From a bacterium (lineage in GTDB: Bacteria; Patescibacteriota; Patescibacteriia; Veblenbacterales; UBA10138), in assembly GCA_020057885.1 (NCBI GenBank), contig JAGVEX010000009.1, positions 36,704 through 100,703 of the forward strand: a DNA stretch of 64,000 nt, in the 5' to 3' direction. Numbering within the stretch: the stretch's first letter is position 1; every line of letters begins with the position of its first letter. The translations under genes were made by a program, and so were the position numbers. Positions 2,057 through 61,939 of this stretch are shown one piece after another. The notes beneath the pieces were generated by a model. The model saw nothing but the letters and a program-made list of their open reading frames with translations, did no database searches and had not been told where the DNA came from.

Positions 2057-2530
2057 TTACTTTCTCTTCTTGGCAAAGTTCACTAATTTACCCTCTACCA
2101 CTTTTAATAAATCTTTTGTTTTCATATGAAGCGAACTTTCAAAACTACCCGCTTGCACCACTGCTTTTTGCGCTTTCATTACTGCCTTATCTACATACAC
2201 CGGCAATTTATGCAAAGGGCCATGAAATGGTGAAATAGCACCTGGCTTAACTTTAAAAAGTTTTATCATTACATTTTCTCTATCAATATCAACTTTTTTG
2301 GCACCGGTAACTTTTTTGAGCGCCTTAAAATCAACTTGGTGTGAAGCTGGTAAAACTACCAAGGCGTGATCTTTATCAATTTTAACTACCAATGTTTTTA
2401 CCACTTCATTTAGTTTGCGTTTTAATGTTTGGGCTAAATCATAAGCTGTGAATACGGTACGGTGTTCTAACATCTCGTGTTTAATTTTATTTTTCTTTAA
2501 AAAATTTAAAACTTTCGCTGGAATCTTCAT
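2057..2530 (-). CDS. YbaK/ProX-family aminoacyl-tRNA deacylase (Cys-tRNA(Pro)/Ala-tRNA(Pro) editing domain-like)
   Basis: 157 aa; motifs HALVVLPASHQVDFKALKKVTGAKKV and GAISPFHGP resemble the YbaK/ProRS INS-editing fold. Confidence 0.5.
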   Translation of the reverse strand: MKIPAKVLNFLKKNKIKHEMLEHRTVFTAYDLAQTLKRKLNEVVKTLVVKIDKDHALVVLPASHQVDFKALKKVTGAKKVDIDRENVMIKLFKVKPGAISPFHGPLHKLPVYVDKAVMKAQKAVVQAGSFESSLHMKTKDLLKVVEGKLVNFAKKRK

Positions 2531-6492: not shown

Positions 6493-6567
6493 AAATTAAA
6501 TAGTTATTTATTTATAGCTTAGGTAATAAAAATACGGTTCATAATTTAATATTTTCTTATTTAAACT

Positions 6568-17549: not shown

Positions 17550-17550
17550 A

Positions 17551-18171: not shown

Positions 18172-18476
18172 AATAGTTCCAAAAAGTACTGTTTTTAGTA
18201 CTCTTCGGAACCATTATAGCATAGATATACAATAAAATCAAGGCATCCAGCATTTGTAGCCATTTAAGCGAGGGTGGTGCGAGCTCTGGCCACACTAAGA
18301 TACAATTTAGCAAGGCTGTCTAAGTATTCCTCTGCCTTAGCTTTGGAAATTACAAGATTATACTTCGAGAGTGTATGGTCTTGGTATCTAACGACTAATT
18401 GTTTTGAATAAATCATTAGTCGAGCCCCAAGTCGTGGAGAATATTAGAATCAGAATTATAATTTTTTATAATATTT

Positions 18477-18986: not shown

Positions 18987-19212
18987 GTGCCCCCAATGCG
19001 TGTTGACTAATAAATCCGCATCTTGTACAAACGACAGTCACTGATGGAAGGGCGGGCCCACCTAAGACTATCCCACCAATTTGTTCTTGTATTGGTTGGC
19101 TTAAATAGCCATCAACTAGAGAAAACTCCTGATTGCCACACCTTGGACATGGGTGACGGGCAAGCCTTTCGTTCAATCTATTTATTACTTCTTGTCGCTG
19201 TTCAGGTGTCAT
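18958..19212 (-). CDS. small zinc-ribbon protein
   Basis: 84 aa with CPRCG...CTRCG; overlaps the downstream membrane-protein ORF. Confidence 0.45.
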   Translation of the reverse strand: MTPEQRQEVINRLNERLARHPCPRCGNQEFSLVDGYLSQPIQEQIGGIVLGGPALPSVTVVCTRCGFISQHALGALGLLPPQGN

Positions 19213-19450
19213 ATTTAGACTTAGTTAAGTATATTTATATTACCATAAATCTTAAAACCATTCAGCCCAAGTAGGAGCTGGGTGAAACCAACTCGTAGCC
19301 GAACTTTGGGAAATGGTAAAAGTTGAAGAAAATTGTAAGGACTGATCAGATTGAGGCTATAAACACCGCACAGGACCTATATTAGTATACTACTTAAGGG
19401 GAGTAGAATTTATTTATTTAAGATTGCTTTATTTGTTACGGAATTTTTTA

Positions 19451-20149
19451 TTATTCCTCTGACCTAAAAAAACAAATGTCCTCAGACGGTGGTTGAGATG
19501 AAGCTTCTGTTGTTCCATCTGGTTCACAGTAAATACAATCTTTTTCTCCAAATATTACACATAGGCGCGACGACTTGCTACTAATCGCTATACGGCTCAC
19601 CGTCGCAACTAGAGTCTCGCGGGCAAGCGAGGTTAATTTACCATCTACTAAAGACTTAGGGTCAACTATTGTGAAAATATTCCCAAAGAGTTTTTCCTGT
19701 TCACTTGCTACATACTCAACAGGGTACTGTTTGCAGACGCGCCGCACAATGTAAGGGTAATTGAGTGACACGGAAAATTTATCTATGTCAATCCCAGAAT
19801 TTTTATCAATAACTTCTTTCAAGTTCTCATCAAATACTTTCAGCCTTTCCAAATGCCCGTTACTAACCGCAAAACCATAGTAATGACTTTCCCCTATAAT
19901 CTGTAAGATGACGCAATCTAAAGCTGGTAATAATAAATAGCTGGCTGTTGAAATGATTTTATCTGCCTTCGGTCCGTATTTTTCCATTACAAAATTAATT
20001 AGCATTTGCCTAACTTGTTCTACAGATTTGGTAGAGTCTTCTAAAGATAAGGGGGTGAATTTTTGTATCCCCAATTCTTTAAGTACTTTTACTTGGGGCT
20101 TGAATAACCAGGCGTAAAATTTTTTTAGAAAGTAAATCATAACTACCAC
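19451..20149 (-). CDS. hypothetical cytoplasmic protein, island cargo
   Basis: 232-aa ORF; 7-nt overlap with the upstream membrane-protein gene, implying an operon. Confidence 0.45.
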   Translation of the reverse strand: MVVMIYFLKKFYAWLFKPQVKVLKELGIQKFTPLSLEDSTKSVEQVRQMLINFVMEKYGPKADKIISTASYLLLPALDCVILQIIGESHYYGFAVSNGHLERLKVFDENLKEVIDKNSGIDIDKFSVSLNYPYIVRRVCKQYPVEYVASEQEKLFGNIFTIVDPKSLVDGKLTSLARETLVATVSRIAISSKSSRLCVIFGEKDCIYCEPDGTTEASSQPPSEDICFFRSEE

Positions 20150-20586
20150 CTAAAAAGAAAGAAATTAGCTATCATAGTGAGTAAATTAAGTGTAGGATCG
20201 CCATATTCATCAAAAAAATTATTAATTATGACGAATAAAATGATGGCGGGTACCCATAGTGCCCACAGAGGATAGACGTAGCTTTTTACTTTTTTTGAAA
20301 ACAGGTTGTGTAATAGAAAGAATGCCAGCACAAAGAATCCCACCCCCAACCAACGATCAGAATTTACAAAAGAAAAAAAGTTTACATCGCACGTTAAATA
20401 CTTAAATGACATGAAGAGCAACAAAACAATCATGTAACTTCTAAATATAAATCCTAAGAGATATAAAAGCCATCCCCATTTGTATCGCAACAAATCCTTC
20501 TCCCATTGTCTCCATTTTAACTCTTTACTTAATTTACTAGCGTTTTGATCAGTGGACTGAATGGAATTAGAAGTTTCGTCTACCAT
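20143..20586 (-). CDS. small membrane protein (4 TM), island cargo; likely ATG start at 20584-20586 (MVDETS...)
   Basis: Track ORF 20143..20616 begins at GTG. The first in-frame ATG gives MVDETSNSIQ...; hydrophobic helices follow. Confidence 0.45.
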   Translation of the reverse strand: MVDETSNSIQSTDQNASKLSKELKWRQWEKDLLRYKWGWLLYLLGFIFRSYMIVLLLFMSFKYLTCDVNFFSFVNSDRWLGVGFFVLAFFLLHNLFSKKVKSYVYPLWALWVPAIILFVIINNFFDEYGDPTLNLLTMIANFFLFRW

Positions 20587-20616
20587 AGAAATATATATTA
20601 GTAAAATTAGTAACAC

Positions 20617-20760
20617 AAAGCCCCGTGTTAGCTAGGCCTTGCGACCCCATACCGGTTTCCCGGTATGGCCCAATGACGAGTTGCTGAACACGGGGTTCAG
20701 TATCGTCATTGGGTCTTATGCTGCCATGCCCACAGCAGAGTCGTGGGTTTAGGCAATTAA
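20617..20760 (-). ncRNA. GC-rich highly structured 5' leader / ncRNA candidate (riboswitch-like)
   Basis: Nested perfect hairpins: CCAUACCGG-GAAA-CCGGUAUGG (GNRA loop), CCCAAUGACGA...UCGUCAUUGGG enclosing CUGAAC-CCCGUG-UUCAG, CUGC...GCAG, plus a possible pseudoknot CCCCGUG/CACGGGG. Lies directly upstream of the 20586 start. Confidence 0.3.
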
Positions 20761-20871
20761 ATTGTGATTATATATTAACAAAATTGTACACTATTATCAA
20801 TAAAACAAATTTGAATTTATATCCATAAGTGTCTATAGTTAATATTATAGTAGAGTCAATAATTTAATCGT

Positions 20872-21543
20872 ATGGTGTTGCTTGATGACATAATTAAGAT
20901 TATCGATGTTTTGCTTTTTCATTCGGAAGTTCGCAACGCTTCCGACAGTCTTCCATCTATCCCCATCATCATGTGCATAGGAGACCTTTCTTCGCCAGGT
21001 ATTTCTAAAAATAATACGGTGAATATTTTGAAGAAGTTGTACAATAACCACTGTATCTCCTCCATCCTTCCACTTGATGAGCCAGATGGTACTTTTGGAT
21101 ATGCTTTTTATAACAAGGACGATAGCGCAAGAATATTGTTAACAATATATAATTCGGCACTTATAAATTACAAACAGGAGTTGCTAGATAAATACCTAAA
21201 TAAAAAGACTACAATAGACCAATCCCATTCTTTGCAAAAAGATGGTATTTCATTTAATGACAATACAGGAGTTATAAAAGTAAAAGATAAACAATTTACT
21301 ATTGCGCCAGACACTAATGAGTTTGGGTTATGTAAGTTCATGTTCGATAGTAAAGTACTGGTACCTATAGATTGGTCAGAAGTATATAAATATGTACAAG
21401 GCGAGGAGCCAAAAGATAAGGTTAAAGATAGAAAGGTAATCTATGATGCAATGAAAAGGGTTAATAGACAAATACGAGAGAAAATTGGTGTTTCTGAAGA
21501 TTTTTTCACAGCTCAAAGAAAGACCATCAGACGAAATTACTAA
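20872..21543 (+). CDS. hypothetical protein, island cargo (AT-rich)
   Basis: 223-aa ORF. Confidence 0.4.
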   Translation: MVLLDDIIKIIDVLLFHSEVRNASDSLPSIPIIMCIGDLSSPGISKNNTVNILKKLYNNHCISSILPLDEPDGTFGYAFYNKDDSARILLTIYNSALINYKQELLDKYLNKKTTIDQSHSLQKDGISFNDNTGVIKVKDKQFTIAPDTNEFGLCKFMFDSKVLVPIDWSEVYKYVQGEEPKDKVKDRKVIYDAMKRVNRQIREKIGVSEDFFTAQRKTIRRNY

Positions 21544-21981
21544 AAGTGATCAAAAGTGGCCAAAAGTGGCTCACTGGGCCATTTGCTATGGTTAAGGTAT
21601 AAACAACCTTAACTTTTTTAATTGAACGATAATCATAGAGTTGTATAGAATCGTATACCATAGTATTCAAGATGACTCTGGCACACAAGGTGAATCCATA
21701 AGATGTAATTTACGTTCCTACCTCACCCCCACTACCTTAATGCTAGTCTAACGAATGTAAAAATGGCGTGTCGCAGAGAGAATAACACCCAGGTGAGATT
21801 GTAACTGATTGTTGTGATGAATATATATCACAAGTGTATGAAAATTTTCACTTTGACAAGCATTACAAAACATCAATAATTGGCTTAGTTGAGGTTAAAA
21901 TCATTGTTATAGGAGCATATTAAGTTGTTAAGTTTGTTAACATACTAACTGGGCAATAAATATGGAATATAAATTCAAATT

Positions 21982-22680
21982 ATGGAACAAATTGATGAAA
22001 TACTAAAAAAGAACCCCCCAGTTCAAGCGGAGTCTATAGCGACTTTTGCTACTCTACCCATTAGGCCGAAACTAAAAGAGACGAGGTTATTTTTAGATAA
22101 TGAATATTTTAGTGAAGGGTATGCGGCCAAATTCCCTAATTGGGTGACAGTGGTGTATGGCATATTAGCTAAGTATGCTAACGCAAAGGAACAAACGTGC
22201 TTTCCATCATATGAGACCATAATGAAAGGGTGTGGCGTAAGTAGGAATAAAGTTAATCCCGCCATAAAGGTACTTGAAATTCATAATATCATTGCTGTCC
22301 AACGCTCTAGGGGAGGTAAAAAGAAGCCGAATCAATATATTTTACTTAGTACAACAGTTTGGGAGTCATTTAACAATACCTATTTGAATACGGTTTTAAG
22401 AAACAAAAAGAACCATCAAACAGTACCTGATTTGTATGCCAAACAGTATCTAAATGAGTATCCAAACAGTACCCCCGTTGATACTGTAAATCAACTAACT
22501 AAATCAACTAATGAAATCAATGACGAACCAATAAAAAAACTAGATCAATTAAGACAACAACTAAAAAATGGGGGTATTCTTAAAAGGTCGACAGCCAATG
22601 AGGAGGAAACTCCACTATTAGGTGGTAAAATAGAAGAGTCCACTAGCGGCATTAAGGCTGCTATCAAAGTTGTACCTTAA
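21982..22680 (+). CDS. phage/plasmid replication-type helix-turn-helix protein (HTH_36-like)
   Basis: 232 aa; CFPSYETIMKGCGVSRNKVNPAIKVLEIHNIIAVQR resembles the PF13730-type wHTH of replication initiators. Confidence 0.45.
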   Translation: MEQIDEILKKNPPVQAESIATFATLPIRPKLKETRLFLDNEYFSEGYAAKFPNWVTVVYGILAKYANAKEQTCFPSYETIMKGCGVSRNKVNPAIKVLEIHNIIAVQRSRGGKKKPNQYILLSTTVWESFNNTYLNTVLRNKKNHQTVPDLYAKQYLNEYPNSTPVDTVNQLTKSTNEINDEPIKKLDQLRQQLKNGGILKRSTANEEETPLLGGKIEESTSGIKAAIKVVP

Positions 22681-22686
22681 CAATTT

Positions 22687-22902
22687 ATGAGTATTGATTC
22701 ACACATTACTTCTAGATTGCCCATGCTCCTAACACCTACGGAGGTAGCCAAGGCTTTACGTATTTCTATGGCGGGCATTTATCGTTTAGTTGATAAACGA
22801 GAGCTTCCGTTCCATAAAGTAGGTCGTGGCTTACGATTTACAGAACAGGATATAGTAGACTACTTATCTAGTGGCCGTGTTGAATCAATAAGGAGAATGT
22901 AA
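22687..22902 (+). CDS. xis: excisionase-family DNA-binding protein
   Basis: 71 aa; LLTPTEVAKALRISMAGIYRLVDKRELPFHKVGRGLRF is the MerR-like excisionase HTH; immediately upstream of int. Confidence 0.6.
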   Translation: MSIDSHITSRLPMLLTPTEVAKALRISMAGIYRLVDKRELPFHKVGRGLRFTEQDIVDYLSSGRVESIRRM

Positions 22903-22907
22903 ATGCT

Positions 22908-24110
22908 ATGTGTGTTCGTAAAATAGGTACATCTTGGAGAATAGATATTAGGTATCAACACATGCGGTACCGCCTTAAAAGCCCTGAAAACTCTAAAGCT
23001 GGAGCAGAGGCCTATGAAGCTACTTTGCGACAGAAATTAGCCCGTGGTGAGTCTATAGAGCCTGACAAACAAACACAGGTAACGACTATGCCTACGTTCA
23101 AAGAGTTTGCTGAAAAATGGTATCGCATCTATGTTCAAAATAATAATAAACCCTCGGAACAAAATACTAAGTCGTTAACTTTAGGTGCACACCTTTACCC
23201 GTGGTTTGGAAGTACTACGATTGATAAAATTACAGCATTACAGATTGAAGAATATAAAGCGTCAAAGCTTAAAACTGGTTTATCAGAGAAGACGGTTAAT
23301 AATCACTTGATAATTTTGAGTAAGTGTTTACGTACAGCTCAAGATTGGGCCGTGATAAGTGTTATGCCAAAAGTTCAACTACTTAAAGTTCCACCGTCAC
23401 GCTTTGATTTTCTGACACAAGAAGAAAGCGAGAGGCTACTTAAGTCAGTAAACCATCCCTTATGGCACGACATGATTCTATTGGCTTTAAGGACCGGCTT
23501 ACGCTTTGGTGAGATTATTGGTTTAGAGTGGAGTGATATAGATTTTGGGGCACAGGTATTAAATGTGAGGAGGTCTATTGTTGGGGGCGTGATTGGTAGC
23601 CCTAAGAGTAACAAAACACGCTGTATACCACTGACTAATGACATCATTGAGATGTTAAGAAAAAGGCAACATGCTAAAGGATTGGTGTTTGACGATAGTA
23701 TCAGCCAGGTAGTGAACTATTTCACTGCCAGAGATAACCTGACTAAACTTTGCAAGTCTGCTGGTTTGAGAGCTATAGGATGGCACACACTTCGTCATAG
23801 CTTCGCATCACAATTGGTAGCTAAAGGAGTTCCAATAATTACAGTACAAACATTACTAGGTCATTCAGATATAAGGATGACTACACGTTATGCGCACTTA
23901 GCTCCATCAACTTTACGTGAAGCGGTCATACTTTTAGAGAGCAATCCGAGAAATTTTGGGCACCAGATGGGCACTGAGTTTGCAACCCTATTTGACTCAC
24001 CAACGAAAAAAGCTCTTAATAGAGCTTTGTTTCCATCATTTAATTTGGTGGGTCCAGTGGGGATCGAACCCACGACACACGGCTTAAAAGGCCGCTGCTC
24101 TACCAACTGA
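22908..24110 (+). CDS. int: tyrosine-type site-specific integrase
   Basis: 400 aa; catalytic region LRTGLRFGEI...WHTLRHSFASQLVAKGVPIITVQTLLGHSDIRMTTRYAHL (R...HxxR...Y); reading frame runs into attR/tRNA. Confidence 0.85.
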   Translation: MCVRKIGTSWRIDIRYQHMRYRLKSPENSKAGAEAYEATLRQKLARGESIEPDKQTQVTTMPTFKEFAEKWYRIYVQNNNKPSEQNTKSLTLGAHLYPWFGSTTIDKITALQIEEYKASKLKTGLSEKTVNNHLIILSKCLRTAQDWAVISVMPKVQLLKVPPSRFDFLTQEESERLLKSVNHPLWHDMILLALRTGLRFGEIIGLEWSDIDFGAQVLNVRRSIVGGVIGSPKSNKTRCIPLTNDIIEMLRKRQHAKGLVFDDSISQVVNYFTARDNLTKLCKSAGLRAIGWHTLRHSFASQLVAKGVPIITVQTLLGHSDIRMTTRYAHLAPSTLREAVILLESNPRNFGHQMGTEFATLFDSPTKKALNRALFPSFNLVGPVGIEPTTHGLKGRCSTN

Positions 24111-24121
24111 GCTATGGACCC
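24046..24121 (-). tRNA. tRNA-Lys (anticodon UUU), CCA encoded
   Basis: Minus strand GGGTCCATAGCTCAGTTGGTAGAGCAGCGGCCTTTTAAGCCGTGTGTCGTGGGTTCGATCCCCACTGGACCCACCA folds as a cloverleaf with anticodon loop CUUUUAA. Confidence 0.85.
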
Positions 24122-48274: not shown

Positions 48275-48880
48275 TCAAACAGTCTGACCGGCTAATAAAT
48301 TTGTAAGAAAACGTACTAATGGCGAAAGCAACCAATCAAATAAATAAAACATAAAAAACAGCAAAATAAAAAAACCATACTTTTCTAGCCACAATTTAAA
48401 CTTGTAATAACGATCTGGTAACAAGGCATAAAGCACTTTGGAACCATCCAGTGGCGCAATGGGCACTAAATTAAATACCGCCAACAAAATATTGGCGTAA
48501 ACTATAATTGTCAAAAGCAAACTAAAATTACTAAGCGGTAAAAAGCGAACCAATAATCCAAAAACCAAAGCGACTATTAAATTAGCCGCCGGTCCGGCTG
48601 CGCCTACTATAGCCGAGCCCCATCTTTGCCAGCGCAAAGCTAAGGGATTAAAAGGAACAGGTTTGGCATAAGCAAACAAAAAATGAGCTTGTGTTACTAA
48701 TAAAAGAATTGGTAAAAGTATTGATCCTATAGGATCAATATGCGGCAGAGGATTTATAGTAAGCCTACCAGCAAGTCGCGGTGTAGGATCACCTAATCTA
48801 TCCGCCATCCAGCCGTGCGCGTATTCATGTAACACAGCTGAGAAAATTATTACTAAAAAGAAAAATATTGTAAATTCCAT
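48275..48880 (-). CDS. site-2 protease family (peptidase M50) membrane metalloprotease
   Basis: 201 aa; HEYAHGWMA (HExxH) and NLVPIAPLDGSKV (LDG motif). Confidence 0.8.
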   Translation of the reverse strand: MEFTIFFFLVIIFSAVLHEYAHGWMADRLGDPTPRLAGRLTINPLPHIDPIGSILLPILLLVTQAHFLFAYAKPVPFNPLALRWQRWGSAIVGAAGPAANLIVALVFGLLVRFLPLSNFSLLLTIIVYANILLAVFNLVPIAPLDGSKVLYALLPDRYYKFKLWLEKYGFFILLFFMFYLFDWLLSPLVRFLTNLLAGQTV

Positions 48881-49019: not shown

Positions 49020-49196
49020 ATGGCTCGAACTTGCCCTACCTGCAATCGCGGATATAACAAATCCGCTTCACGCAGTCACTCCAATATTAAAACCATTAAA
49101 CGTCAGCACTTAAACTTGCAATACAAGGTGGTTGGCGGTAAGCGTGTTAGAATTTGTACCCGCTGTATCAAAACTTTAGCCAAGCCTGTTAAATAG
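49020..49196 (+). CDS. rpmB: 50S ribosomal protein L28 (58 aa; below ORF-track threshold)
   Basis: Manual translation MARTCPTCNRGYNKSASRSHSNIKTIKRQHLNLQYKVVGGKRVRICTRCIKTLAKPVK; pattern matches bL28 (C..TGK...SHS...TKR...NL...KR). Followed by a terminator. Confidence 0.7.
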   Translation: MARTCPTCNRGYNKSASRSHSNIKTIKRQHLNLQYKVVGGKRVRICTRCIKTLAKPVK

Positions 49197-49222
49197 ACAA
49201 TTGTCATTTTTTAAAGCAATCA

Positions 49223-49255
49223 AAAACCCTGTTTCAAACAGGGTTTTTAGTTAAT
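49223..49255 (+). terminator. intrinsic terminator after rpmB
   Basis: aaaaccctgtttc-aaa-cagggttttt + tagtt. Confidence 0.6.
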
Positions 49256-49300: not shown

Positions 49301-50560
49301 TCATGCCGCACGTACTGCGCCATGACTTCGCACTAGCCACTTATATGTGGTAAGTTCTTGCAACGCCATTGGGCCACGAGCATGAAGCTTTTGAGTGCTT
49401 ATACCAATTTCTCCACCGAGGCCAAATTCATATCCATCAGTAAACGCGATAGAGGTGTTAATGTAGACTACTGCCGCGTCGATTACCTGCTGAAATTGCT
49501 TTGCAATTTTTGAGTTCGATGTAATAATACTTTCAGAATGCTTGGAAGTATAACGCTGGATATGGTTAACTCCCTCATGCCAATTTTTAACAACTTTCAC
49601 ACTCATAGTAAGGCTAAGAAATTCCTTGCCATAGTGTGATGGTTGAGCATGATGAAGTAAGACGCGAGGATAAACGCTATGTAATATACTATAGCTGGTG
49701 CGATCTGCATAAATTTTTACACCAGCTTGGGCTAATTTTGGTCCCAATATCTTAAAAAGTTTACTAGCAACAATGCGATCAACAACCAGTGTATCCAATG
49801 CGTTGCAAACGCTCACACGCCTCGTTTTAGCATTAAATACCGTTTGCACTGCCCAATTAAGATTTGCTGAACGTTCCACATAAATATGACACACGCCAGC
49901 ACCTGTTTCAATTAATGGAACTGTTGAATTACGTCTGGCATATTCAATTAATCTGCTACTTCCTCGTGGAATAATGACATCCAAATATTGATTCGCTTGT
50001 AAAAGACGATCAACGGAAGAACTATTAAAAGAATCAAGAAGAACCACGGCTTGGGGATTTATACCATTCATAAGCAACACTCTATGAATCAAACCTACGA
50101 GTACTTTATTGGTCTCATAAGCGTCGCGCCCCCCTTTGAGCACGAGTGCATTACCAGATTTTATTGCTAGACTAAATACTTCAATTGTAACATTTGGTCG
50201 TGCTTCGTAAATAATTCCAACAACGCCAAATGGAACGGTGCAACGTTCAATAGTAAGCCCGTTCTTTAAAACTCGATGATCGATCCTATGACCAACTGGA
50301 TCGGGGAGGTGCTCAACTGCCTTAAGACTCTCGGCTATTCCCTTAATACGTTCAGATGTTAATCGCAACCTATCTGCATGAGGATATGAAACTGTTAGGC
50401 GCAAAAAATCACGAGCATTAGCTGCTAAAATTTTTCTTGTTGAGGCAATGAGTAATAAACGGAGATCGCGAAGTACCGCGTTCTTCGTTTTAGTCTTTAG
50501 TAATTGAATATCACTAGAGGCTTGTTTGACCTTTTTAAGGGTTGAATCAAAATTTTTCAT
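49301..50560 (-). CDS. proA: gamma-glutamyl phosphate reductase
   Basis: 419 aa; ...PLIETGAGVCHIYVERSAN...AKTRRVSVCNALDTLVVDR matches ProA catalytic region. Confidence 0.8.
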   Translation of the reverse strand: MKNFDSTLKKVKQASSDIQLLKTKTKNAVLRDLRLLLIASTRKILAANARDFLRLTVSYPHADRLRLTSERIKGIAESLKAVEHLPDPVGHRIDHRVLKNGLTIERCTVPFGVVGIIYEARPNVTIEVFSLAIKSGNALVLKGGRDAYETNKVLVGLIHRVLLMNGINPQAVVLLDSFNSSSVDRLLQANQYLDVIIPRGSSRLIEYARRNSTVPLIETGAGVCHIYVERSANLNWAVQTVFNAKTRRVSVCNALDTLVVDRIVASKLFKILGPKLAQAGVKIYADRTSYSILHSVYPRVLLHHAQPSHYGKEFLSLTMSVKVVKNWHEGVNHIQRYTSKHSESIITSNSKIAKQFQQVIDAAVVYINTSIAFTDGYEFGLGGEIGISTQKLHARGPMALQELTTYKWLVRSHGAVRAA

Positions 50561-50694
50561 AGATGAATGTTCAATTATTATCCCACATATACAAATAAAG
50601 AATACACTATATCAAAATAAAAAGTAAGGCCAAATCGACGTAATTAAATACAAATCGATTTGGCCTTAATAGTATCCACTGATAGTGGTTTGTG

Positions 50695-52023
50695 TTAAAT
50701 AACCAAATGCTCTTTTTTATCCAGATTAATTGGACGATTGGGAGCAAATGTACGCAAGGACAGTGTATGTTGTTCGAACGGCACTGGAAGAGACACCGCA
50801 GCTTCTGTATCTACTCCGCGAATAATCTCTCGCACTAACAGCGCCGTAATTGGCGCATGCATAAGGCCATGTCCAGAAAAACCCGCAGCATGCACTAAGT
50901 TTGCAACCCTATCATCAAAACCAATCATGGGATTGTGATCTGGTGTTGTTTCATAGTACCCACATGTGATAGACGTTACAGCGCCACACTCTGCCAGCAC
51001 TGGAGAAAAATCAGCGACTTGGCTCATGAGTGCAACTGCACGATCTCCCATCGGAATATCGGCAAACATGGGTTCTACCAAATCTTGATCTGCATCGACG
51101 AAATTTGGCTCTGGTGGAGTTTCATGTGCCCATCCTAACATCAGACTACTACTTTCCGGACGAGAGTATACACCACGACCAGCGCCCATTCCATAAATGG
51201 TCATAGGCAGCTCATTCCACTTATTGGGCGCCACGACTTCATGATTACGGGTTGATAGAAACCACAGATACCGCTTAAGTGGCGAAATCCGTAAATCCAT
51301 ACCGCCCAGTGAACGACTCACGCGTGGTGACCAAGCACCGGCAGCATTTACTACCCAATCGCACTCAATTTCACCATGTGTAGTATTAAGAGCCACAATG
51401 TGATCATCAGAAATATGCGCGCCGATCACTTCAGTATTCTGGTGGAGAATAGCGCCAAGTTCCTGTGCCCGCCGAAAACCGAGTTAATAAATTTGATCGT
51501 GATTGAGAAATCCATCACTAGGACAATAGGTCGCGCCAATAAGACGACTACTGTCTATATGCGGCCAACGAACATGCACCTCAGATGGTGTCAAAACTTC
51601 AACCGGTAGTTTGATATCACGGTGCATCGCCGCTTGTGATTGGGCATGTATCCATGCCAATTCCACTTCCTTATGTTTTGATTGATCACCCTCATAGAAA
51701 ATCGGATCCTCATACAGAAAAAGGTATCCGTTATGCCGAATCATCCAGCATTGCTGATCTGATGGCGTGTGCATCAACTCATGAAAATGCTCATAGAAGT
51801 GCCCACTGAATGCCATACCGAGTGCTGTTTCCCGCACCCCAAACTGAGCACGGATGCACGCGGCTGAACGACTGGAAGACCCATTACCAATTGCTTTTTT
51901 CTCCAAGGCAATCACTTGGAATCCCGCTTCCGCGAGAAGAACAGAGCACAAAGCTCCAGTTGCGCCGCCACCAATAATGGCAACGCGGTCACCACTTTGT
52001 GGTGAATTCGATTGGTTTTTCAT
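50695..52023 (-). pseudogene. FAD-dependent oxidoreductase (DAO/glycine-oxidase-like) interrupted by an in-frame TAA stop at 51484-51486
   Basis: N-terminal ORF 51484..52023 carries the dinucleotide-binding motif VAIIGGGATGALCSVLLAEAG. C-terminal ORF 50695..51429 is in the same frame 54 nt later. Confidence 0.55.
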
Positions 52024-52033
52024 GTTTCACCTT

Positions 52034-53818
52034 TCAAGTTGTTTTTGCCAGAGTAAGCTGGCTGGTTGTATTGTTATGAGTGCGTGTTTGTTGAAACTCA
52101 ACACAGCGCTCTGTTATTTCATCTATATTGAGAATCTGACTTGCGCCAGTTTCCCGTACTCGTAGCTCTACCTTTCGTTCTGTTGCAAGACGCCCGACGG
52201 TAATTCTATATGGGCATCCAATGAGATCAGCGTCGTTAAATTTTACGCCGGCGCGTTCAGTGCGATCATCAAAGAGAACATCAACACCTTGCGCGGAAAG
52301 ATTCTCATAGAGCTCATTAGCCAAGCTTGATTGCTGTTGATTCGTGTAATCAACCGGCACAATATGCACTAAAAATGGTGCAACTGTAATCGGCCAGATA
52401 ATACCGTGATCATCATGATTCTGTTCAATAATGGCATGTAGCAATCTCGTTGTACCAATACCGTAGCAACCCATCCAAATTGCCTTGGCTTGCCCAGCAC
52501 TATCAAGAAATGTCGCACCCATAGCCTCAGCGTAAGCTTGCTGTAACATGAACACGTGTCCAACCTCAATTCCCTTGCTTTCCTCAAGCCCATCACCACA
52601 TTCCGGACAACCGTGACCTACCGTAGCCGTATGAAGCTCATAGAACTCTTTTGGTGTTTCGAGATCGCGACCAAAGTTTACATCCAGAGCATGGTGATCA
52701 GTCGTGTTGAACCCACAAAGGAAATTAGTCATCCCTTGTGTAGAATGGTCAAACAGAATGCGCTTCACTTTAGTGAGTCCAAGTGGACCCGCAAATCCCA
52801 CGGCGGCACCAGTAACCTCTTCAACCACTCGATCAATTGCTGGCACAACACTATCAACTGTCAAAAAATTTGTTAATTTCACCGTATTGACAGCAAGGTC
52901 GCCACGAATACAGACTGCGACTTCATATGGATTATTTGATTCTGGATTTACGGTAAATATGATCGTCTTGATCATATCGTGCGCTTTGATATCAGGGAAG
53001 AATCTTTCTAATTCCTCAACTGTTTTCGCATTTGGTGTTAACTCGTGTCGCAACGGACGCTGTGCAGAATTGTACTGATAGATCGGATAGCTACTATTAG
53101 CCTTTTCGGTATTAGCGCCGTAGTCACAGCGGGTGCAGGTGAGAAGTGTATCCTCCCCTACATCACATACTGCCATAAACTCGGCCGAACCTTGACCACC
53201 AATTGCACCAGAGTCTGCTTGGACGGAAACACAGTTCGTCAGCCCAAGTCGTAGAAAAATACGCGAATAAACATCACGCATCAACATAAAGGACTTATGC
53301 ATTCCTTCTTCATCGATATCAAATGAGTATGCATCTGACATAACAAACTCACGCGACCGAACCATTCCATACCGAGGACGCATCTCATCACGAAATTTTC
53401 TGCCGATTTGGTGAAGTATAACTGGCAGTTGCCGCCAAGATTTAATATCGTTCGCAACGAGCATTGTAATCACCTCTTCGGCTGTAGGAGACAAGCCAAA
53501 CATTTCACTAGAGTAACGCTCTTGGGTAGTGAACATTGTTTTTGATTTGAGATATTTTTCCCATCTTCCAGTTTGCTCCCACAAAGAGCTTGACTGTAAA
53601 ATGGGCAGATCAACATGTTGAATACCGACTTTGGTCATCTCATTAAAAACGATGCCACAAATTCGATCATGCACTAGCTTTCCTAGGGGAAGCAGGGCAA
53701 AAATACCAGCCGACCCGACGGATCTAATGAACCCCGCTTTTTCCAACAAGAGATGCGAAATGATCATATTTGATCGCATCCCTCGAAGGGTAGGTGGGAA
53801 TAGTTTTGAGAGTTTCAT
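52034..53818 (-). CDS. proS: prolyl-tRNA synthetase (bacterial-type)
   Basis: 594 aa; class-II motifs ...FRDEMRPRYGMVRSREFVMSDAYSFD... Confidence 0.85.
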   Translation of the reverse strand: MKLSKLFPPTLRGMRSNMIISHLLLEKAGFIRSVGSAGIFALLPLGKLVHDRICGIVFNEMTKVGIQHVDLPILQSSSLWEQTGRWEKYLKSKTMFTTQERYSSEMFGLSPTAEEVITMLVANDIKSWRQLPVILHQIGRKFRDEMRPRYGMVRSREFVMSDAYSFDIDEEGMHKSFMLMRDVYSRIFLRLGLTNCVSVQADSGAIGGQGSAEFMAVCDVGEDTLLTCTRCDYGANTEKANSSYPIYQYNSAQRPLRHELTPNAKTVEELERFFPDIKAHDMIKTIIFTVNPESNNPYEVAVCIRGDLAVNTVKLTNFLTVDSVVPAIDRVVEEVTGAAVGFAGPLGLTKVKRILFDHSTQGMTNFLCGFNTTDHHALDVNFGRDLETPKEFYELHTATVGHGCPECGDGLEESKGIEVGHVFMLQQAYAEAMGATFLDSAGQAKAIWMGCYGIGTTRLLHAIIEQNHDDHGIIWPITVAPFLVHIVPVDYTNQQQSSLANELYENLSAQGVDVLFDDRTERAGVKFNDADLIGCPYRITVGRLATERKVELRVRETGASQILNIDEITERCVEFQQTRTHNNTTSQLTLAKTT

Positions 53819-53894
53819 AAAAACACACTCCTTTCATAGAGGGTTTGGTTGTGAATGTTCAATTTTACTTGCATTTTATTTTCATACTACTTTA

Positions 53895-54731
53895 TCACTT
53901 ACGGAACGACCCGTCAAGAAAAGTAGAAATCGAACGAGAGCGTCGCGCGGCAGCACGAATTGCGTGAAGCCAAAGCTTATCAAGATGAGCTTTATGCAAA
54001 ATGTGAAAAGCCGCTTCAGTAGTACCACCTTTCGAAGCCACACGCTCACGCCAAATTTCGGGGGAATCAGTAGAATCCTCAAGGAGAGCAATGCTACCTT
54101 TTAGGGTTTGAAGCACTAATTTCTTAGCAACATCTGCTGATATTTTTAAATACTTCGCGGCACTAATAAGATCGGCGGCAAACGAAAAAAGATAAGCTGG
54201 CCCCGAGCCACTAACAGCCGTAATTGCATCAAACATATTTTCGTTATGAATTTCAATTTGCTCTCCTCCGGCACTGAAAAGCGATTGCGCAAAAAATTTT
54301 TGTTTCTTTGTTGTGGTACGAGTTGCATGCCAGGCAGAAAAACCTTTACCAATTATCATGGGAAGATTTGGCATCGCTCGCACAACACGAGAACACCCTG
54401 TGGCAGATCGAAGAGTTGCCACACTCACTCCAGCCATAATGGATATAATTAAGCCATTTTTGGAGAAGTGTTTATTAATTTGGTTGGCAACAGCAAAAAA
54501 ATCTTGTGGTTTAACAGCCACCAAAACGACTGTTGAGCTAGCCAAAACCGATGGTGAAAGATCGCTGATTGTATGAACTAAAAATTTAGACTTCAGTGTT
54601 CTCTGTTTTTGTATACTTCGTTCAATAACAGTAATTTGTCTAAAGGAAATACTAGACACGCGTAATAACGCCTGCAACACAGCAGTGCCCATATTCCCGC
54701 CGCCAATAATAGTAATATGATAATGTGTCAT
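53895..54731 (-). CDS. proC: pyrroline-5-carboxylate reductase
   Basis: 278 aa; Rossmann ITIIGGGNMGTAVLQAL. Confidence 0.8.
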   Translation of the reverse strand: MTHYHITIIGGGNMGTAVLQALLRVSSISFRQITVIERSIQKQRTLKSKFLVHTISDLSPSVLASSTVVLVAVKPQDFFAVANQINKHFSKNGLIISIMAGVSVATLRSATGCSRVVRAMPNLPMIIGKGFSAWHATRTTTKKQKFFAQSLFSAGGEQIEIHNENMFDAITAVSGSGPAYLFSFAADLISAAKYLKISADVAKKLVLQTLKGSIALLEDSTDSPEIWRERVASKGGTTEAAFHILHKAHLDKLWLHAIRAAARRSRSISTFLDGSFRK

Positions 54732-55807
54732 AAGGGAAAAAGAATTAAATTATCAGCATGCACGACCTCAATGTTAAATGGTCGCTCCTTGGTGACAATT
54801 ATTTTACCGAGATCAGTACTGGAGAGAGCTGACACGCCAAGAGCCACCGGACGATTTTCGTGATCGATAATTTCAACTGAATCGTCCGACTCGAATGTTC
54901 CATAAACATGTGTCACGCCAACGGCTAATAAACTCTTTCGTTGGCGAAGTGCGCCCATTGCGCCAACATCAATTTTAATACTGGCACTAGAAGTATGTGA
55001 AACAATTAGTCTTCGACTCCTGTCAGTTAATGAAATCGGCTGTGGCCAAGGTAAACAAACCGTGCCTCGGCACTTCTCACCGTCAATAATTTCAAGTGCA
55101 TGCTCAAGTATCCTACCATTGAGAATATATGTCGTGATACCAACAAAGCTAGCAAGACGGGCGGAACGCAACTTTGACTCCATACCCCCTCGCCCAGCCA
55201 AGCTCTTTTTGCCAAGATGCAAACTCATAAGCTCTTTGTTAACGTCGGTGATACAAGTAATAGGAGTCTGGTCGTGGTTGGTATTATTATCTGGTGCAGT
55301 ACGAAAAACGCCAGCTACATTAGTAAAAAGAAATATACTTTCTGCACCAATCACCACCCCGACGATTGTCGCAAGCTGATCGTTGTCTATAAAATCATGT
55401 GTCTCCGAAGATGATGTGGCATCATTTTCATTAATAAGTGGCGTAATACCTGCAGTGAGACATTCATGAAAAGTCTTTTGTAAGGTCATGTAGCGATTGC
55501 GCTCAATAATATCCTGACGGGAAAGAAGAAATTGCCCAAACTTAACACCAGTCGCAAGACCAAGTTGATACATAAATGCACTAATAATCAATTGCCCACG
55601 ACCAGCACGAGCTCCATATGAAGTAAGGGTAGGTGCATCTGATGTACCAACGGCTACGGCACCAGATAGTACTAATAATGGTAACTTGCCTCGGTTTTGA
55701 AAACCGCGTACTACATCAACAACCCTTTGGAGAAACGTTTGGCTAATATTGCCACGTTCATCTAACAAAGAGTTACTGCCAATCTTTATAACAACTGTAT
55801 TTTTCAT
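54728..55807 (-). CDS. proB: glutamate 5-kinase (with C-terminal PUA domain)
   Basis: 359 aa; VIKIGSNSL...PLINENDA...; 4-nt overlap with proC. Confidence 0.8.
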   Translation of the reverse strand: MKNTVVIKIGSNSLLDERGNISQTFLQRVVDVVRGFQNRGKLPLLVLSGAVAVGTSDAPTLTSYGARAGRGQLIISAFMYQLGLATGVKFGQFLLSRQDIIERNRYMTLQKTFHECLTAGITPLINENDATSSSETHDFIDNDQLATIVGVVIGAESIFLFTNVAGVFRTAPDNNTNHDQTPITCITDVNKELMSLHLGKKSLAGRGGMESKLRSARLASFVGITTYILNGRILEHALEIIDGEKCRGTVCLPWPQPISLTDRSRRLIVSHTSSASIKIDVGAMGALRQRKSLLAVGVTHVYGTFESDDSVEIIDHENRPVALGVSALSSTDLGKIIVTKERPFNIEVVHADNLILFPL

Positions 55808-56030
55808 AACATATCACTAAATCTAAAATATATATTAATTTTAGCCTATTTTTATACCTAAGTAAAGACTAAAAGTGGTGCACTGATAATCTGAATTGTT
55901 TGGTATTAATAATTCAATATATTTAATAAAAAACAATAGATAATCGGCATAATTTTTCACAAAAGCCGTTTGATATTCAAACGGCTTTTTTATATCTTTA
56001 TCTACTATATTTAAATTTAGAAAAATAAAA

Positions 56031-56083
56031 AAGCAAGTACGTTTAAAATACCACACGTACTTGCTTCAAGGTATATATTATTA
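56031..56083 (-). terminator. intrinsic terminator after the radical-SAM gene
   Basis: Minus strand agcaagtacgtgtggtattttaaacgtacttgct followed by ttttttatttttc. Confidence 0.55.
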
Positions 56084-56085
56084 TT

Positions 56086-57564
56086 TTATTTTTCACAGAC
56101 CGCTCGGGCTCGACGCGCAAAATCAAAAAAGATTATTGCATGCTCAATAGCTTCTGGTAAAGCCTTGGTTTTAGTAACGGCTGTTTTAATAATCAGCCAC
56201 CAGTACAACCAGCGCTCTTGAGAAAGCATTCCAATTTTCCAGTGAGCCAGTAAAACGGCTTTAACGTCTTGCAGTGACAAACGACCCTTTACTGTAGGAT
56301 TATAATGTTTCAAAAAAGTATGAATCCTTTGGTAATAAGGCTTGGGTGAGTAGATTTGTTCTATTAGCCAACGATAACCGTTACATAATATATCAGCCGG
56401 CATTTTAGGAACAAAATCAAGTTGAACATTAGTTTGTTCTCCTCCAGTGGTCTTAACTAAACGACCTTCTTTACGCAGACGAAAATACAGTTCGGTATTC
56501 TTAACAACATTCAACAAGCCAACCATGGCTGTAACAATACCGGAATTCTGTATAAAATTTTTCTGTAAAGAAAAAATATTTTCTGGGTCATTATCAAAAC
56601 CTACTATAAATCCACCCAATACTTGTAAGCCTTTTGTGTTTATTTTCTTCACCGCCGCCATTAAATCTGTGTGTGTATTTTGACGCTTATTGCATTCCTT
56701 TAAACTTTCCAAATGCGGGGTCTCAATACCAACAAATACCTTATAAAAGTTGGCCTTAACCATCAGGTCAAGTAGTTCGTCGTCATCAGCTAAGGTAATA
56801 TCGGCTTCTGTGGAAAATTTAAAAGGAAAACCATGCGCCTTCTGCCAGATAATAATGTCAAGTAAGAGTTTTCTCACTTTAATTTTATTGCCGATAAAAT
56901 TATCATCAACAATAAAAACTCCGCCGCGCCAACCAGCCCCATAAAGAGATTGCAACTCATTAATGAATTGCTGGTTTGTTTTGGTGCGGGGTACTTGACC
57001 AAACATTTTTCTGACATCGCAGAAATCGCACTTACGAGGACATCCGCGTGAAAACTGCAACATCATGGTTGAATAGTCTTTGAAATTAATCAGCGACCAA
57101 TCTGGTATGGGTGTTAAATTTAAATCTGGGTATGTATTGGAGATGTATTCACGTTGTAAATTTCCCAGCTCTAAATCTTTCAAAAACAGCGGCAATGTAA
57201 TTTCAGCTTCATTCAACACGTAATGGCTCACGCCCTTAAAAATATCAGGCTCGGTTGTAAATAGCGGTCCGCCTGCCACTACCGGCTTACTAAAACTATT
57301 GCAACGATCAATAATTTCTTGGGAGCTTTTAGTTTGCACTGTCATAGCGCTGATAAATACATAATCAGCCCATTGTATATCTGCGTCTGTTAAAGGTCTC
57401 ACGTTTTCATCTATCAATCGTCTTTCCCATTCTTTGGGTAACATAGTTGATACCGTTAGTAACCCTAGTGGTGGCGAGGCTGCTTTGCGGTTGATAAATT
57501 TAAGTGCTTTCCTGAATGTCCAAAAACTGTCGGGGAACCTTGGGTATACGAATAATATTCGCAT
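56086..57564 (-). CDS. B12-binding radical SAM enzyme (class B rSAM methyltransferase-like, DUF4070-type C-terminus)
   Basis: 492 aa; N-terminal cobalamin-binding-like domain (MRILFVYPRF...); CPRKCDFCD radical-SAM CxxxCxxC. Confidence 0.65.
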   Translation of the reverse strand: MRILFVYPRFPDSFWTFRKALKFINRKAASPPLGLLTVSTMLPKEWERRLIDENVRPLTDADIQWADYVFISAMTVQTKSSQEIIDRCNSFSKPVVAGGPLFTTEPDIFKGVSHYVLNEAEITLPLFLKDLELGNLQREYISNTYPDLNLTPIPDWSLINFKDYSTMMLQFSRGCPRKCDFCDVRKMFGQVPRTKTNQQFINELQSLYGAGWRGGVFIVDDNFIGNKIKVRKLLLDIIIWQKAHGFPFKFSTEADITLADDDELLDLMVKANFYKVFVGIETPHLESLKECNKRQNTHTDLMAAVKKINTKGLQVLGGFIVGFDNDPENIFSLQKNFIQNSGIVTAMVGLLNVVKNTELYFRLRKEGRLVKTTGGEQTNVQLDFVPKMPADILCNGYRWLIEQIYSPKPYYQRIHTFLKHYNPTVKGRLSLQDVKAVLLAHWKIGMLSQERWLYWWLIIKTAVTKTKALPEAIEHAIIFFDFARRARAVCEK

Positions 57565-57740
57565 AATCTTTCACCTGCCTTTCATGCGGTAATGTATTGA
57601 TTGTTAATGAATTATTTTTGTTTTAATAATAAAGTTTTAGCATAAAACTAATAATAATTCAAATATCTAAATATGCCTTTTAAACAAAACTCCACGGGCT
57701 TATGCCCGTGGTTTAAGTAAAGTATTATGGTATATAAAAA

Positions 57741-58150
57741 CATACCAATGGTCGGGGTGGAGGCCTGCCTGCGACTCGATTGAGCTCGTCGAAATCCGGC
57801 AGGCAGGGAGTCGCCCATAAACCACAATGGTTCAGGGCGCCCTGAACCGCGTTCCGCTCCGCGGAACTCTGGTTCTAGGGCGAACCCTCTGTCACACCCT
57901 CCGGGGTGAAATTATTTATTCTGAATCATCTCATCAGAGTCGGGGTGGAGGGAGTCGAACCCTCTGTCACACCCACCCCAAGGGTGCATGTTACCGGTAC
58001 ACCACACCCCGACCCTGATGAGATTTTTAAAAAATGTACACCCGTGAAAGCTGCAAGTTTTCGCTTTCACCCCCGCGGATGCTTAAAGTTGCCGGCTTGC
58101 CCTGTACCTCCGCCAAAGGCGGATGGTGCAGGGTACACCACACCCCGACC
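57741..58150. repeat. tRNA-Pro fragments and GC-rich perfect palindromes flanking the intact tRNA-Pro
   Basis: 3'-end fragment gtcggggtggag at 57741-57752; anticodon-to-T-arm fragment at 57883-57905; 5' acceptor/D-arm fragment at 58128-58150; perfect hairpins ggaacgcggttcagggcgccctgaaccgcgttcc. Confidence 0.5.
57940..58011 (-). tRNA. tRNA-Pro (anticodon GGG), no encoded CCA
   Basis: Minus strand CGGGGTG-TG-GTGT-ACCGGTAAC-ACAT-G-CACCC-TTGGGGT-GGGTG-TGACA-GAGGG-TTCGACT-CCCTC-CACCCCG-A; anticodon loop UUGGGGU. Confidence 0.7.
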
Positions 58151-58164
58151 ACTAGTATGTTTAT

Positions 58165-58192
58165 AAGCAAAAAAGCCCAACGGGCTTCAATG
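58165..58192 (-). terminator. strong intrinsic terminator (minus strand)
   Basis: agcccgttgggct followed by ttttttgc on the minus strand. Confidence 0.6.
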
Positions 58193-58608
58193 TAACATTA
58201 TTTCCCTAAAATTAAAAGCCCTACCATCGGTTTGATACAATTGGAGTTCCTGTGAATCAAGTTGGGTTGGTTCTAAAGGCCGCTGGGGCCAATGAGGGTG
58301 TGTTCCTTACTCCCACTGTTCCATACTGCCTCTACCCCTTTACCGCTTGGTGTTCTCGAACTTATGCCCAAGGGCATAAATTATACTGAACCCCTATATA
58401 TTGAGATTGTAGAGCTCAATAAATATCAAACCATGTTGGATAGAGCTATTATTAATGATAGCGCAGATTAAGCAAGTTGTCAAGGCAATAAAATGAAGTT
58501 TTTGGCTAAGATTAGCCTTTTTTAAGTAAGTTAGCCAAAAATAAAAGGGGCGAATTTTTCGTCCCTTTTTTAAGCAAAATTTTATTGTTTTTTATGAATA
58601 TTTTTTCA

Positions 58609-59461: not shown

Positions 59462-59773
59462 TTAAGCATATTTTCTAAGTAATTCATTAAACCCATTATT
59501 CTTACTATATTTAAGTTCGCGTGAACCGCGTTCTACTGTGGCTATCGCCACACCCAAACGATAAGCAACTTCGCGAATAGATAAACCCTTGCTAAGCAAC
59601 TTAACTATCTGCCAACGCAAAGCCAACTCATTATACTCGCCTGGTGTTAATAAATCACCTAAAAATCTGCTAATCTGTCCGGCTGACTTTAGGTGAGCAA
59701 ATAAGCCAACCAACTCCTGTTGAAAAGCACGCTGAGCCTGGGGCTGTTTTTTAACTAATTTATCTCGCGCCAT
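59462..59773 (-). CDS. TrpR-family (YerC/YecD-like) DNA-binding protein
   Basis: 103 aa; LLTPGEYNELALRWQIVKLLSKGLSIREVAYRLGVAIATVERGSREL matches the TrpR/YerC HTH. Confidence 0.7.
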   Translation of the reverse strand: MARDKLVKKQPQAQRAFQQELVGLFAHLKSAGQISRFLGDLLTPGEYNELALRWQIVKLLSKGLSIREVAYRLGVAIATVERGSRELKYSKNNGFNELLRKYA

Positions 59774-61464: not shown

Positions 61465-61939
61465 GGCTAACTCCTTTTAAAAGTGACTGATAATCAATTG
61501 TTAATTTACATTTTAATTTTATTTAAAACAAAAAGCGCTTTTCGCCCTAAAGCATCCGAGAGAGAAGAAACTTCTCTAACAGAAAATCTTAAGGACGAAA
61601 AGCGCTTTTCAAATTGTAAAACACTTTCCGCGGTACCACCCTGATTGGCTAATAACTAATGGCAACCTGCCTATAGCATTAACCCTCTTTATGCACTCCC
61701 AAATTTATGAGATATACACTTATTCTATAACGGGAACTCCCGTCCTTATCTAATATTCAAAAAATGAAATTCAATAAGGCAACTCCAGAGGGAACTTCCA
61801 CTAAAATACCCCGGAAAATGCTCACAATCAAGGCATTTTCTCCCTGTACAGGATAAATAAAGTGTACTTTCCTCTTTCACTGTTTTTAACTAATTTCTAA
61901 AAGAACAACCTGTAAAAACTATTATACACCCAGTTAAAA

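Follow-up and report, generated by a model that had tools for sequence, protein, structure and literature searches.

In a 64,000-nt stretch of contig JAGVEX010000009.1 (assembly GCA_020057885.1, positions 36,704 to 100,703; Patescibacteriota, UBA10138), hereafter called the window, the proline biosynthesis genes proB, proC and proA are grouped with the prolyl-tRNA synthetase (ProRS) gene proS and a flavoenzyme gene between 55.8 and 49.3 kb, not far from a tRNA-Pro gene. We propose, with a probability of about 0.7, that these five genes represent a conserved gene unit of a Patescibacteria (CPR1-type) clade, which in this genome is positioned in a variable slot beside tRNA-Pro. An earlier note on this DNA had named proB, proC, proS, an FAD-dependent oxidoreductase, proA, a cobalamin-type radical SAM (S-adenosylmethionine) enzyme and tRNA-Pro, and all of them were found on the minus strand at the positions it gave; its interpretation of the group as a horizontally acquired proline cassette was not supported, as the same five-gene order and congruent identity ranks were observed within the clade, G+C content at third codon positions (GC3) and codon usage are native, and neither an integrase nor a distal repeat was found. 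Descriptions of the candidate phyla radiation (CPR)/Patescibacteria credit these bacteria with almost no amino-acid biosynthesis. Retention by one clade of the complete glutamate-to-proline route together with ProRS and a proline dehydrogenase (ProDH)-like flavoenzyme suggests a specific need for proline, with supply, osmotic balance and redox balance as the candidates.

The block is transcribed in the order proB (54728..55807), proC (53895..54731), proS (52034..53818), flavoenzyme gene (50695..52023) and proA (49301..50560), with a 4-nt overlap between proB and proC. ProB, a glutamate 5-kinase with a PUA domain (Pfam AA_kinase and PUA), scored 212.5 bits with TIGR01027 (cut-off 186), ProC, a pyrroline-5-carboxylate (P5C) reductase, 225.5 bits with TIGR00112 (cut-off 196.75), and ProA, a glutamate-5-semialdehyde (GSA) dehydrogenase, 496.9 bits with NF001221 (cut-off 289); the three open reading frames (ORFs) are full length and intact, and each product exceeds the cut-off of a curated NCBIfam equivalog. 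ProS scored 633 bits with NF006625 (cut-off 558) and has the class II core, the INS editing domain and the C-terminal anticodon-binding domain of a bacterial-type ProRS (in Pfam terms, tRNA_edit at residues 261-376 interrupts tRNA-synt_2b at 103-467, and HGTP_anticodon occupies 484-572). ProB, ProA and ProC are predicted to convert glutamate via gamma-glutamyl phosphate and GSA/P5C to proline, and the co-transcribed ProRS would charge tRNA-Pro with it. As ProRS would be transcribed with the pro genes, proline supply and use may therefore be expressed together.

The unit would comprise a promoter, proB, proC, proS, the flavoenzyme gene, an internal terminator or attenuator, and proA. A promoter-like site on the minus strand (55838..55866, TTTACT-17-TAAAAT) precedes proB, and its motif CTTTAC..GGCTAAA.TT is common to the window and the related loci L006 and L008. 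The sequence before proB showed neither a T-box nor any other known leader. A hairpin followed by a T-run (50614..50665, minus strand) occupies the gap from the flavoenzyme gene to proA; it is kept in position in six loci, and its stem sequences differ among them yet stay complementary, that is, they covary. Because this conserved element precedes proA, what had been described as one operon may consist of two transcription units; the earlier description of a complete module in one operon holds for the integrity of proB, proC, proS and proA, fails for the flavoenzyme gene, which is interrupted by a TAA codon, and may fail at the terminator-like hairpin before proA. Downstream of proA, a hairpin at 49221..49249 is positioned as a bidirectional terminator shared with the convergent gene rpmB, and the proA-rpmB-M50 junction was confirmed by an independent Logan assembly (L004, a 3-kb contig); exact searches with ProS and with the radical SAM protein returned no contig. 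The window encodes the same three enzymes as Escherichia coli proBA and Bacillus subtilis proBA/proI, including a ProB with a PUA domain. Unlike in the bacterial proBA/proC systems, proB and proA are set apart by proC, proS and the flavoenzyme gene, proA is preceded by a conserved terminator-like hairpin, no leader could be found, and the host is a reduced one of the CPR type.

Comparison with relatives revealed that this organisation is conserved. The closest ProS proteins are 84, 81, 80, 79, 79 and 71% identical to that of the window, one of them from candidate division CPR1 bacterium GW2011_GWA2_42_17, and are followed by matches of ~60% from the CPR and other phyla. The DNA around six ProS genes (L001, L005, L006/7, L008/9, L010/11 and L012; ProS 61-84% identical) was compared with the window, and the order proB, proC, proS, flavoenzyme gene, proA is the same in all six, the sequence of L006/7 ending before proA. 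In addition, all five proteins give the same rank of identity to the window (L005 > L001, L006, L008 > L010 > L012), ProB for example ranging from 49 to 80%, which shows that the five genes move together. On either side of the module the neighbouring genes vary from genome to genome, an upstream ClpB being shared by L006 and L008 only, and in none of the six loci was a radical SAM gene or tRNA-Pro found near the module. In the non-coding DNA, conservation is limited to the internal hairpin and a promoter segment of ~60 nt before proB, with none beyond proA. The unit would be inherited within the clade and its genomic position would not. The NCBI label ‘Gammaproteobacteria’ of L001 was not accepted, as its ProS and its whole module group with CPR1/Patescibacteria. 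In the same locus a divergent aldehyde dehydrogenase with weak affinity to P5C and alpha-ketoglutarate semialdehyde (KGSA) dehydrogenases is encoded just upstream of proB. In the more distant L013, whose ProS is 58% identical, the neighbourhood of proS includes a PutA gene, a long proB-like gene and the gene of another class II synthetase; judging by this locus, clustering of proS with proline metabolism genes recurs outside the clade. No description of the arrangement proB-proC-proS-ProDH-like-proA was found in the literature on proline biosynthesis in Patescibacteria, and with this gene order the CPR clade adds a new variant to the known organisations of the pathway.

To evaluate the position of the block, metagenomes were scanned for the tRNA-Pro gene by its end sequences, and 36 loci were returned. 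Two of them, L017 and L035 (L046 is equivalent to L035), match the window closely in their translation proteins (amino-acid identities of 88-89% for EF-G, 90-92% for S12, 90% for EF-Tu and 81-85% for S7) and share its order of a non-coding RNA, tRNA-Pro, rpmB on the opposite strand, M50, rpsL, rpsG, fusA and tuf. In the window, this conserved right flank begins with rpmB (ribosomal protein L28, Pfam Ribosomal_L28; 49020..49196, plus strand), 71-75% identical to both loci at the DNA level, and continues with the gene of an M50-type membrane protease (48275..48880, minus strand; 63-66% amino-acid identity to L017/L035) and then rpsL, rpsG, fusA and tuf. The 8.4-kb block, comprising the radical SAM and pro genes, is missing between tRNA-Pro and rpmB in both L017 and L035. 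The slot in L035 (2421-3990) holds a 1.7-kb island, at whose borders the tRNA-Pro 3' end and terminator recur as a direct repeat, and which carries genes for a GIY-YIG protein and a helix-turn-helix (HTH)/SocA-Panacea antitoxin and an ORF of 169 aa; that in L017 (~4440-5230) holds a 0.75-kb stretch bounded by a repeat of the tRNA-Pro 3' piece with the palindrome CCTGCCTGC.GCAGGCAGG. As both loci lack the 8.4 kb and hold other, repeat-bounded islands there, the slot between tRNA-Pro and rpmB is a recombination hot spot in the clade and the arrangement of the window is derived. The earlier suggestion that tRNA-Pro may be an integration site is thus borne out to the extent that the site beside it is prone to insertion.

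The block of the window, however, lacks the usual marks of a tRNA-targeted island, which it resembles in lying beside a tRNA gene and in being missing at the site in close relatives. The ORFs from 49.3 to 57.6 kb contain no integrase or recombinase domain, and near 49.2-49.3 kb, at the proA end, no part of tRNA-Pro recurs within three mismatches; the cargo is a conserved housekeeping unit. The start of the block falls past the closing terminator of the tRNA-Pro locus (57711-57692) and is not enclosed by the outermost tRNA shell (see below). Hairpins matching the terminator after proA are placed between the tRNA-Pro complex and rpmB in L017 and L035, and a scan of viral contigs with the tRNA-Pro 3' end gave no match. 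The canonical form of such an island is present in the same window at tRNA-Lys(TTT) (16545-24121), where a tyrosine integrase gene (22908-24110) abuts tRNA-Lys and the last 25 nt of the tRNA recur at 16545-16569 with one mismatch, bracketing 7.5 kb of lower-GC DNA. This element also holds an AbiEii toxin gene (16770-17549), an HTH_36 protein gene and a LOOT RNA (20634-20755), and the strand switches; no relevant literature on the LOOT motif was found. The proline block appears to be a clean case of a housekeeping unit relocated into a tRNA-linked hot spot, which a reading of a single window can mistake for a foreign cassette.

Compositional analysis, proposed in the earlier note as a check for foreign origin, gave a divided answer: the module is an outlier in tetranucleotides and GC content and native in GC3 and codon usage. 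Its GC content is four points above the rest of the window, and this excess sits in codon positions 1 and 2 and therefore reflects amino-acid content. GC3 is 0.349 in the module versus 0.343 in thirteen other genes of the window, and the per-gene codon-usage distances of the module genes fall within the range of the other genes.

The fourth gene of the unit encodes an FAD flavoenzyme of the DAO family resembling the beta subunit of L-proline dehydrogenase. In the window it is split into two ORFs in one frame by a single stop codon (TAA at 51486-51484; DQIY-stop-LGFRR), with Pfam DAO positions 1-149 matching the first ORF and 180-352 the second. In the six relatives compared the gene is unbroken (440-452 aa), with Q, R, I or M at the position of the stop, and one change from CAA to TAA would suffice to create it; the window protein is otherwise 82% identical to the L008 orthologue. 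The TAA codon is either a very recent gene loss or a sequencing error, only this assembly covering the site. Stop-codon reassignment was rejected as a cause, given that the stop in question is a TAA and that translation with table 11 leaves the other genes unbroken.

The best match of the flavoenzyme among solved structures is 1Y56_B, the FAD-containing catalytic subunit of its complex (E = 1e-33 with the single sequence and 6e-42 with a profile, the next best being ~1e-16; 147 bits versus at most 64 bits for other solved relatives). For an AlphaFold model of the L008 orthologue (pLDDT 88), the top Foldseek match was also 1Y56_B, with glycine and sarcosine oxidases close behind, so that the nearness to the proline dehydrogenase beta subunit is clear by sequence and narrow by fold. 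The complex in 1Y56 is an L-proline dehydrogenase from Pyrococcus horikoshii (PMC1949818; PMC4575208). With the beta subunit of this archaeal, dye-linked enzyme (PDH1 beta) the window protein shares the DAO fold, GxGxxG and the motif GYY..TPD.NP.IG...AGFSGHG.M.AP; it differs in being 26% identical and ~60 residues longer, and no alpha-subunit partner gene was found in or beside the unit in any of the seven loci. No NCBIfam equivalog model reached its cut-off. Of the nearest homologues outside the clade (52-57% identical), many are from Chloroflexota, in which the gene is solitary, and the gene neighbourhood of a Ktedonobacteraceae homologue offered no functional clue. Judging from sequence, the protein is an amine-oxidising enzyme, and because its gene holds a fixed place in the proline unit and its closest solved relative is 1Y56_B, oxidation of proline to P5C is its most likely activity. 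The enzyme would oxidise proline, or a similar secondary amine, back to P5C and thereby tune the balance between proline and P5C.

The 492-aa cobalamin-type radical SAM protein (56086..57564, minus strand) carries Pfam Radical_SAM and a C-terminal DUF4070. The earlier note had let this gene follow the pro genes; it is indeed adjacent, lying, however, upstream of proB in the direction of transcription and in a separate unit. As terminator-like hairpins follow the gene (a hairpin with T-run at ~56067-56021 and a second hairpin at 55989-55961) and a promoter-like site lies before proB, within a 278-nt AT-rich spacer, the radical SAM gene is a transcription unit of its own, outside the proline module. 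The protein has the cluster motif CX3CX2C (C175/C179/C182) and an N-terminal B12-binding domain just below threshold (E = 3e-7, 30.6 bits versus a cut-off of 32.1), for which precomputed PF02310 domains are present in homologues; these are the hallmarks of class B radical SAM enzymes, the cobalamin-binding domain being sub-cut-off. It shares the B12-binding-like domain, the CX3CX2C core and DUF4070 with class B enzymes such as BchE, PhpK and HpnR. Classification with hidden Markov models missed all characterised class B subfamilies widely (38-62 bits versus NCBIfam cut-offs of 360-650), and the sole solved relative matches in the core only (E = 3e-7). Beyond the self-match, the best homologues are 54-60% identical and come from DPANN archaea, CPR, Planctomycetota, Spirochaetota and Desulfobacterota; no close homologue was found in the clade, the next best being 60% identical, and two other genomic contexts shared no partner gene. 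The clade does use cobalamin, as L001 carries, at 1289-7886 upstream of its module, genes for a PduO-type cobalamin adenosyltransferase and for DUF4430 and DUF6580 proteins as well as an adenosylcobalamin (AdoCbl) riboswitch (3348-3520).

How the unit came to lie in this slot, together with an unrelated radical SAM gene, between tRNA-Pro(GGG) and rpmB-M50-rpsL, is best explained by relocation or exchange within the clade. Recent acquisition from an unrelated lineage by site-specific integration at tRNA-Pro, as the earlier note held, would fit the absence of the block from this site in L017 and L035, the use of the tRNA-Pro 3' end as an island attachment site there, and the outlying tetranucleotide and GC composition of the module. 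We nevertheless consider it improbable: the nearest homologues of all five proteins are found within the clade and in the same order, GC3 and codon usage are native, the integrase and terminal repeat seen at the tRNA-Lys island are missing, the block starts outside the outermost tRNA shell and past its terminator, and proS is an essential gene. Lateral movement of the unit among clade members, with replacement of the resident copy instead of relocation within one genome, is unlikely too, though less so than a foreign source. It would account for flanks that differ in every genome, for module GC contents from 0.37 to 0.49 in four genomes whose flanks span only 0.385-0.401, and for differences between module and flank GC3 of -0.06 to +0.11; against it, the unit carries neither a mobility gene nor a conserved end, and the synonymous composition in the window matches that of the host. 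CPR genomes are, moreover, generally poorly syntenic. Relocation of an inherited unit has several observations against it as well. The tetranucleotide distance reaches its window maximum over proS and the flavoenzyme gene (z +3.8, 50-55 kb), above the z +1.6 of the tRNA-Lys island; module GC3 exceeds that of the flanks by 0.09-0.11 in L005, L006 and L008, and is 0.06 below it in L001, and owing to this unevenness the unit could have been transferred between related genomes. The absence of the block from L017 and L035 refers to this site, and vertical descent was judged on the module proteins, as the module-bearing loci hold no housekeeping gene for a species tree. At the level of function, glycine and sarcosine oxidases come nearly as close as 1Y56_B in fold, which leaves the flavoenzyme substrate putative, and a proline oxidase next to a P5C reductase looks futile.

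The module might instead be catabolic, the flavoenzyme yielding P5C/GSA from proline, ProA in reverse forming gamma-glutamyl phosphate and NADPH, and ProB in reverse releasing glutamate and ATP, which would mean substrate-level phosphorylation in a fermentative cell. A proline-dehydrogenase-like flavoenzyme fixed in the unit and the aldehyde dehydrogenase gene upstream of proB in L001 are compatible with such a pathway, and the reverse ProA reaction is a standard in-vitro assay. On the other side, ProC and co-transcription with proS indicate synthesis, inactivation here has struck the flavoenzyme and spared proB, proA and proC, and no in vivo precedent for the catabolic direction is known to us; a catabolic role appears less probable again than a foreign origin. 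Least probable of all, a slim chance indeed, is a functional tie of the radical SAM enzyme to proline or tRNA-Pro, for instance through modification of tRNA-Pro, ProRS or a proline derivative. The gene adjoins both in the window, and L001 has B12 uptake and adenosylation genes with an AdoCbl riboswitch upstream of its module. No relative examined, however, has the gene beside the module or tRNA-Pro, it is transcribed separately, and its homologues at 54-60% identity in DPANN archaea, CPR, Planctomycetota and Desulfobacterota lie in unrelated contexts; nothing but position in this one genome links it to proline.

The tRNA-Pro locus that borders the slot is itself unusual. An intact tRNA-Pro(GGG) gene (57939..58011, minus strand; ARAGORN; Rfam 54.9 bits) is enclosed in a nested locus of ~430 nt (57735..58165, minus strand; repeats D1, D2 and D6, inverted repeats I1 and I2). 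The outer 5' piece (58147-58132) repeats the initial 16 nt of the tRNA, and the outer 3' piece (~57911-57752), interrupted by hairpins in the T loop and T stem, ends with CCACCCCGACCA. The region 58165-57735 folds with a minimum free energy of -226.8 kcal/mol (z -12.25 versus shuffled sequence), and in each shell the acceptor stem is continued by a separate leader-trailer helix (17 and 18 bp). The tRNA is identical or nearly identical in 11 metagenome loci, in all of which the acceptor stem is extended by a leader-trailer helix; in the window (57923-58029) and the ten other loci this helix measures ~14 bp and includes the ACCA end. Among eight distinct sequences (alignment A2), 12 of the 14 pairs change on both sides and 94.6% of the cells are paired, so that the extension helix covaries while the tRNA body is nearly invariant. 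The same kind of helix was observed at tRNA-Ser(TGA) in L008. Nesting with one to at least four shells occurs in L014, L017, L029/L044, L034 and L035/L046, and the plain, un-nested form in L021 and L032/37/48. The junctions (CACCC|GAGGGGG...CCCCGGA|GGGTG) are recurrent as well; the shells break in the D loop, the anticodon loop, the variable region or the T arm, and are partly degenerate on the outside, the D arm in L017 being shortened, for example.

Beyond the tRNA, the nested region has no Rfam match, even at E<=10, and readings as a group I intron, hammerhead, transfer-messenger RNA (tmRNA) or RNase P were dropped for want of a model match; the CUGAUGAG string is the complement of the leader. 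Archaeal tRNAs that have multiple introns or are split, and tRNA fragments that integrated elements leave behind, are likewise interrupted in the D, anticodon and T loops and the variable region, and both the archaeal disrupted tRNAs and this locus have complementary sequences next to the halves. Here, however, the host is bacterial, an interrupted tRNA-Pro encloses a complete one, degeneration has partly affected the outer pieces, and the junctions, as read from the sequence, lack bulge-helix-bulge geometry; splicing of the archaeal type was rejected, since at the junction a 2x3 internal loop leads into a long helix, and no relevant report of tRNA introns in CPR bacteria was found.

The locus can be read as serial insertion of a tRNA-Pro-bearing segment into a resident gene, with the remnants serving as attachment sites, and an RNA-processing role of the leader-trailer helices is just as plausible. 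As a tentative possibility, well short of an even chance, we suggest that the tRNA-Pro(GGG) locus is a self-nesting insertion system, in which a short element with a complete tRNA-Pro on a long leader-trailer helix would enter one of the loops, such as the anticodon loop, of the tRNA-Pro gene already in place. The inserted tRNA would take over the function and the resident halves would stay as outer shells, which would explain a matryoshka of up to four or more shells and the recurrent junctions. The outermost 3' piece, with the palindrome formed by CCTGCCTGC and GCAGGCAGG, would act as the attachment site, so that the adjoining slot would become a cargo site, which in this genome may have captured even the essential proS/proline unit. 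The nested locus and its covarying helix may reveal that these bacteria turn over their tRNA genes, or process tRNA precursors, in an undescribed way.

Directly upstream of tRNA-Pro lies a structured non-coding RNA of ~240 nt (58208-58448, minus strand) with a strong promoter (58483-58455) and a terminator (58188-58172). It is conserved in the window, L014, L017, L021, L035 and L037, and 22 of its 47 pairs covary, compared with 1-8 in slid controls; Rfam, searched up to E<=10, offered no family for it. In layout it resembles RNase P RNA by its closing helix and a long-range pairing between GGAGUUC and GGAACUCC, a likeness that is unproven.

In general, the window fits a genome of the CPR/Patescibacteria, with a LOOT RNA, a T-box, many small ORFs and no L30 between S5 and L15. 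The T-box leader (114 bits) at 61588-61889 on the minus strand has a counterpart in L017 (9343-9667); its specifier position reads GUU, possibly for valine, by which a proline specifier was ruled out. What follows this leader is a run of tiny ORFs (82, 79, 115 and 57 aa) and the gene for a TrpR-like protein (59462-59773) rather than a gene for an aminoacyl-tRNA synthetase. At 4283-5704 and 8662-9951, the window encodes a bacterial-type aspartyl-tRNA synthetase of only 473 aa, which matches its model in two stretches, the insertion domain being apparently missing, and, nearby, a second class II synthetase of the D/K/N type (429 aa). The Pro-tRNA editing deacylase of the YbaK/ProX type listed in the earlier note corresponds to a free-standing tRNA-editing domain protein of that type at 2057..2530 (minus strand), with a TIGR00011 match (E = 4e-22, 78.5 bits) below the cut-off of 153. 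The truncated purH of that note was likewise recovered as a remnant at 12619-13239, whose domain content comprises the MGS/IMP-cyclohydrolase part only.

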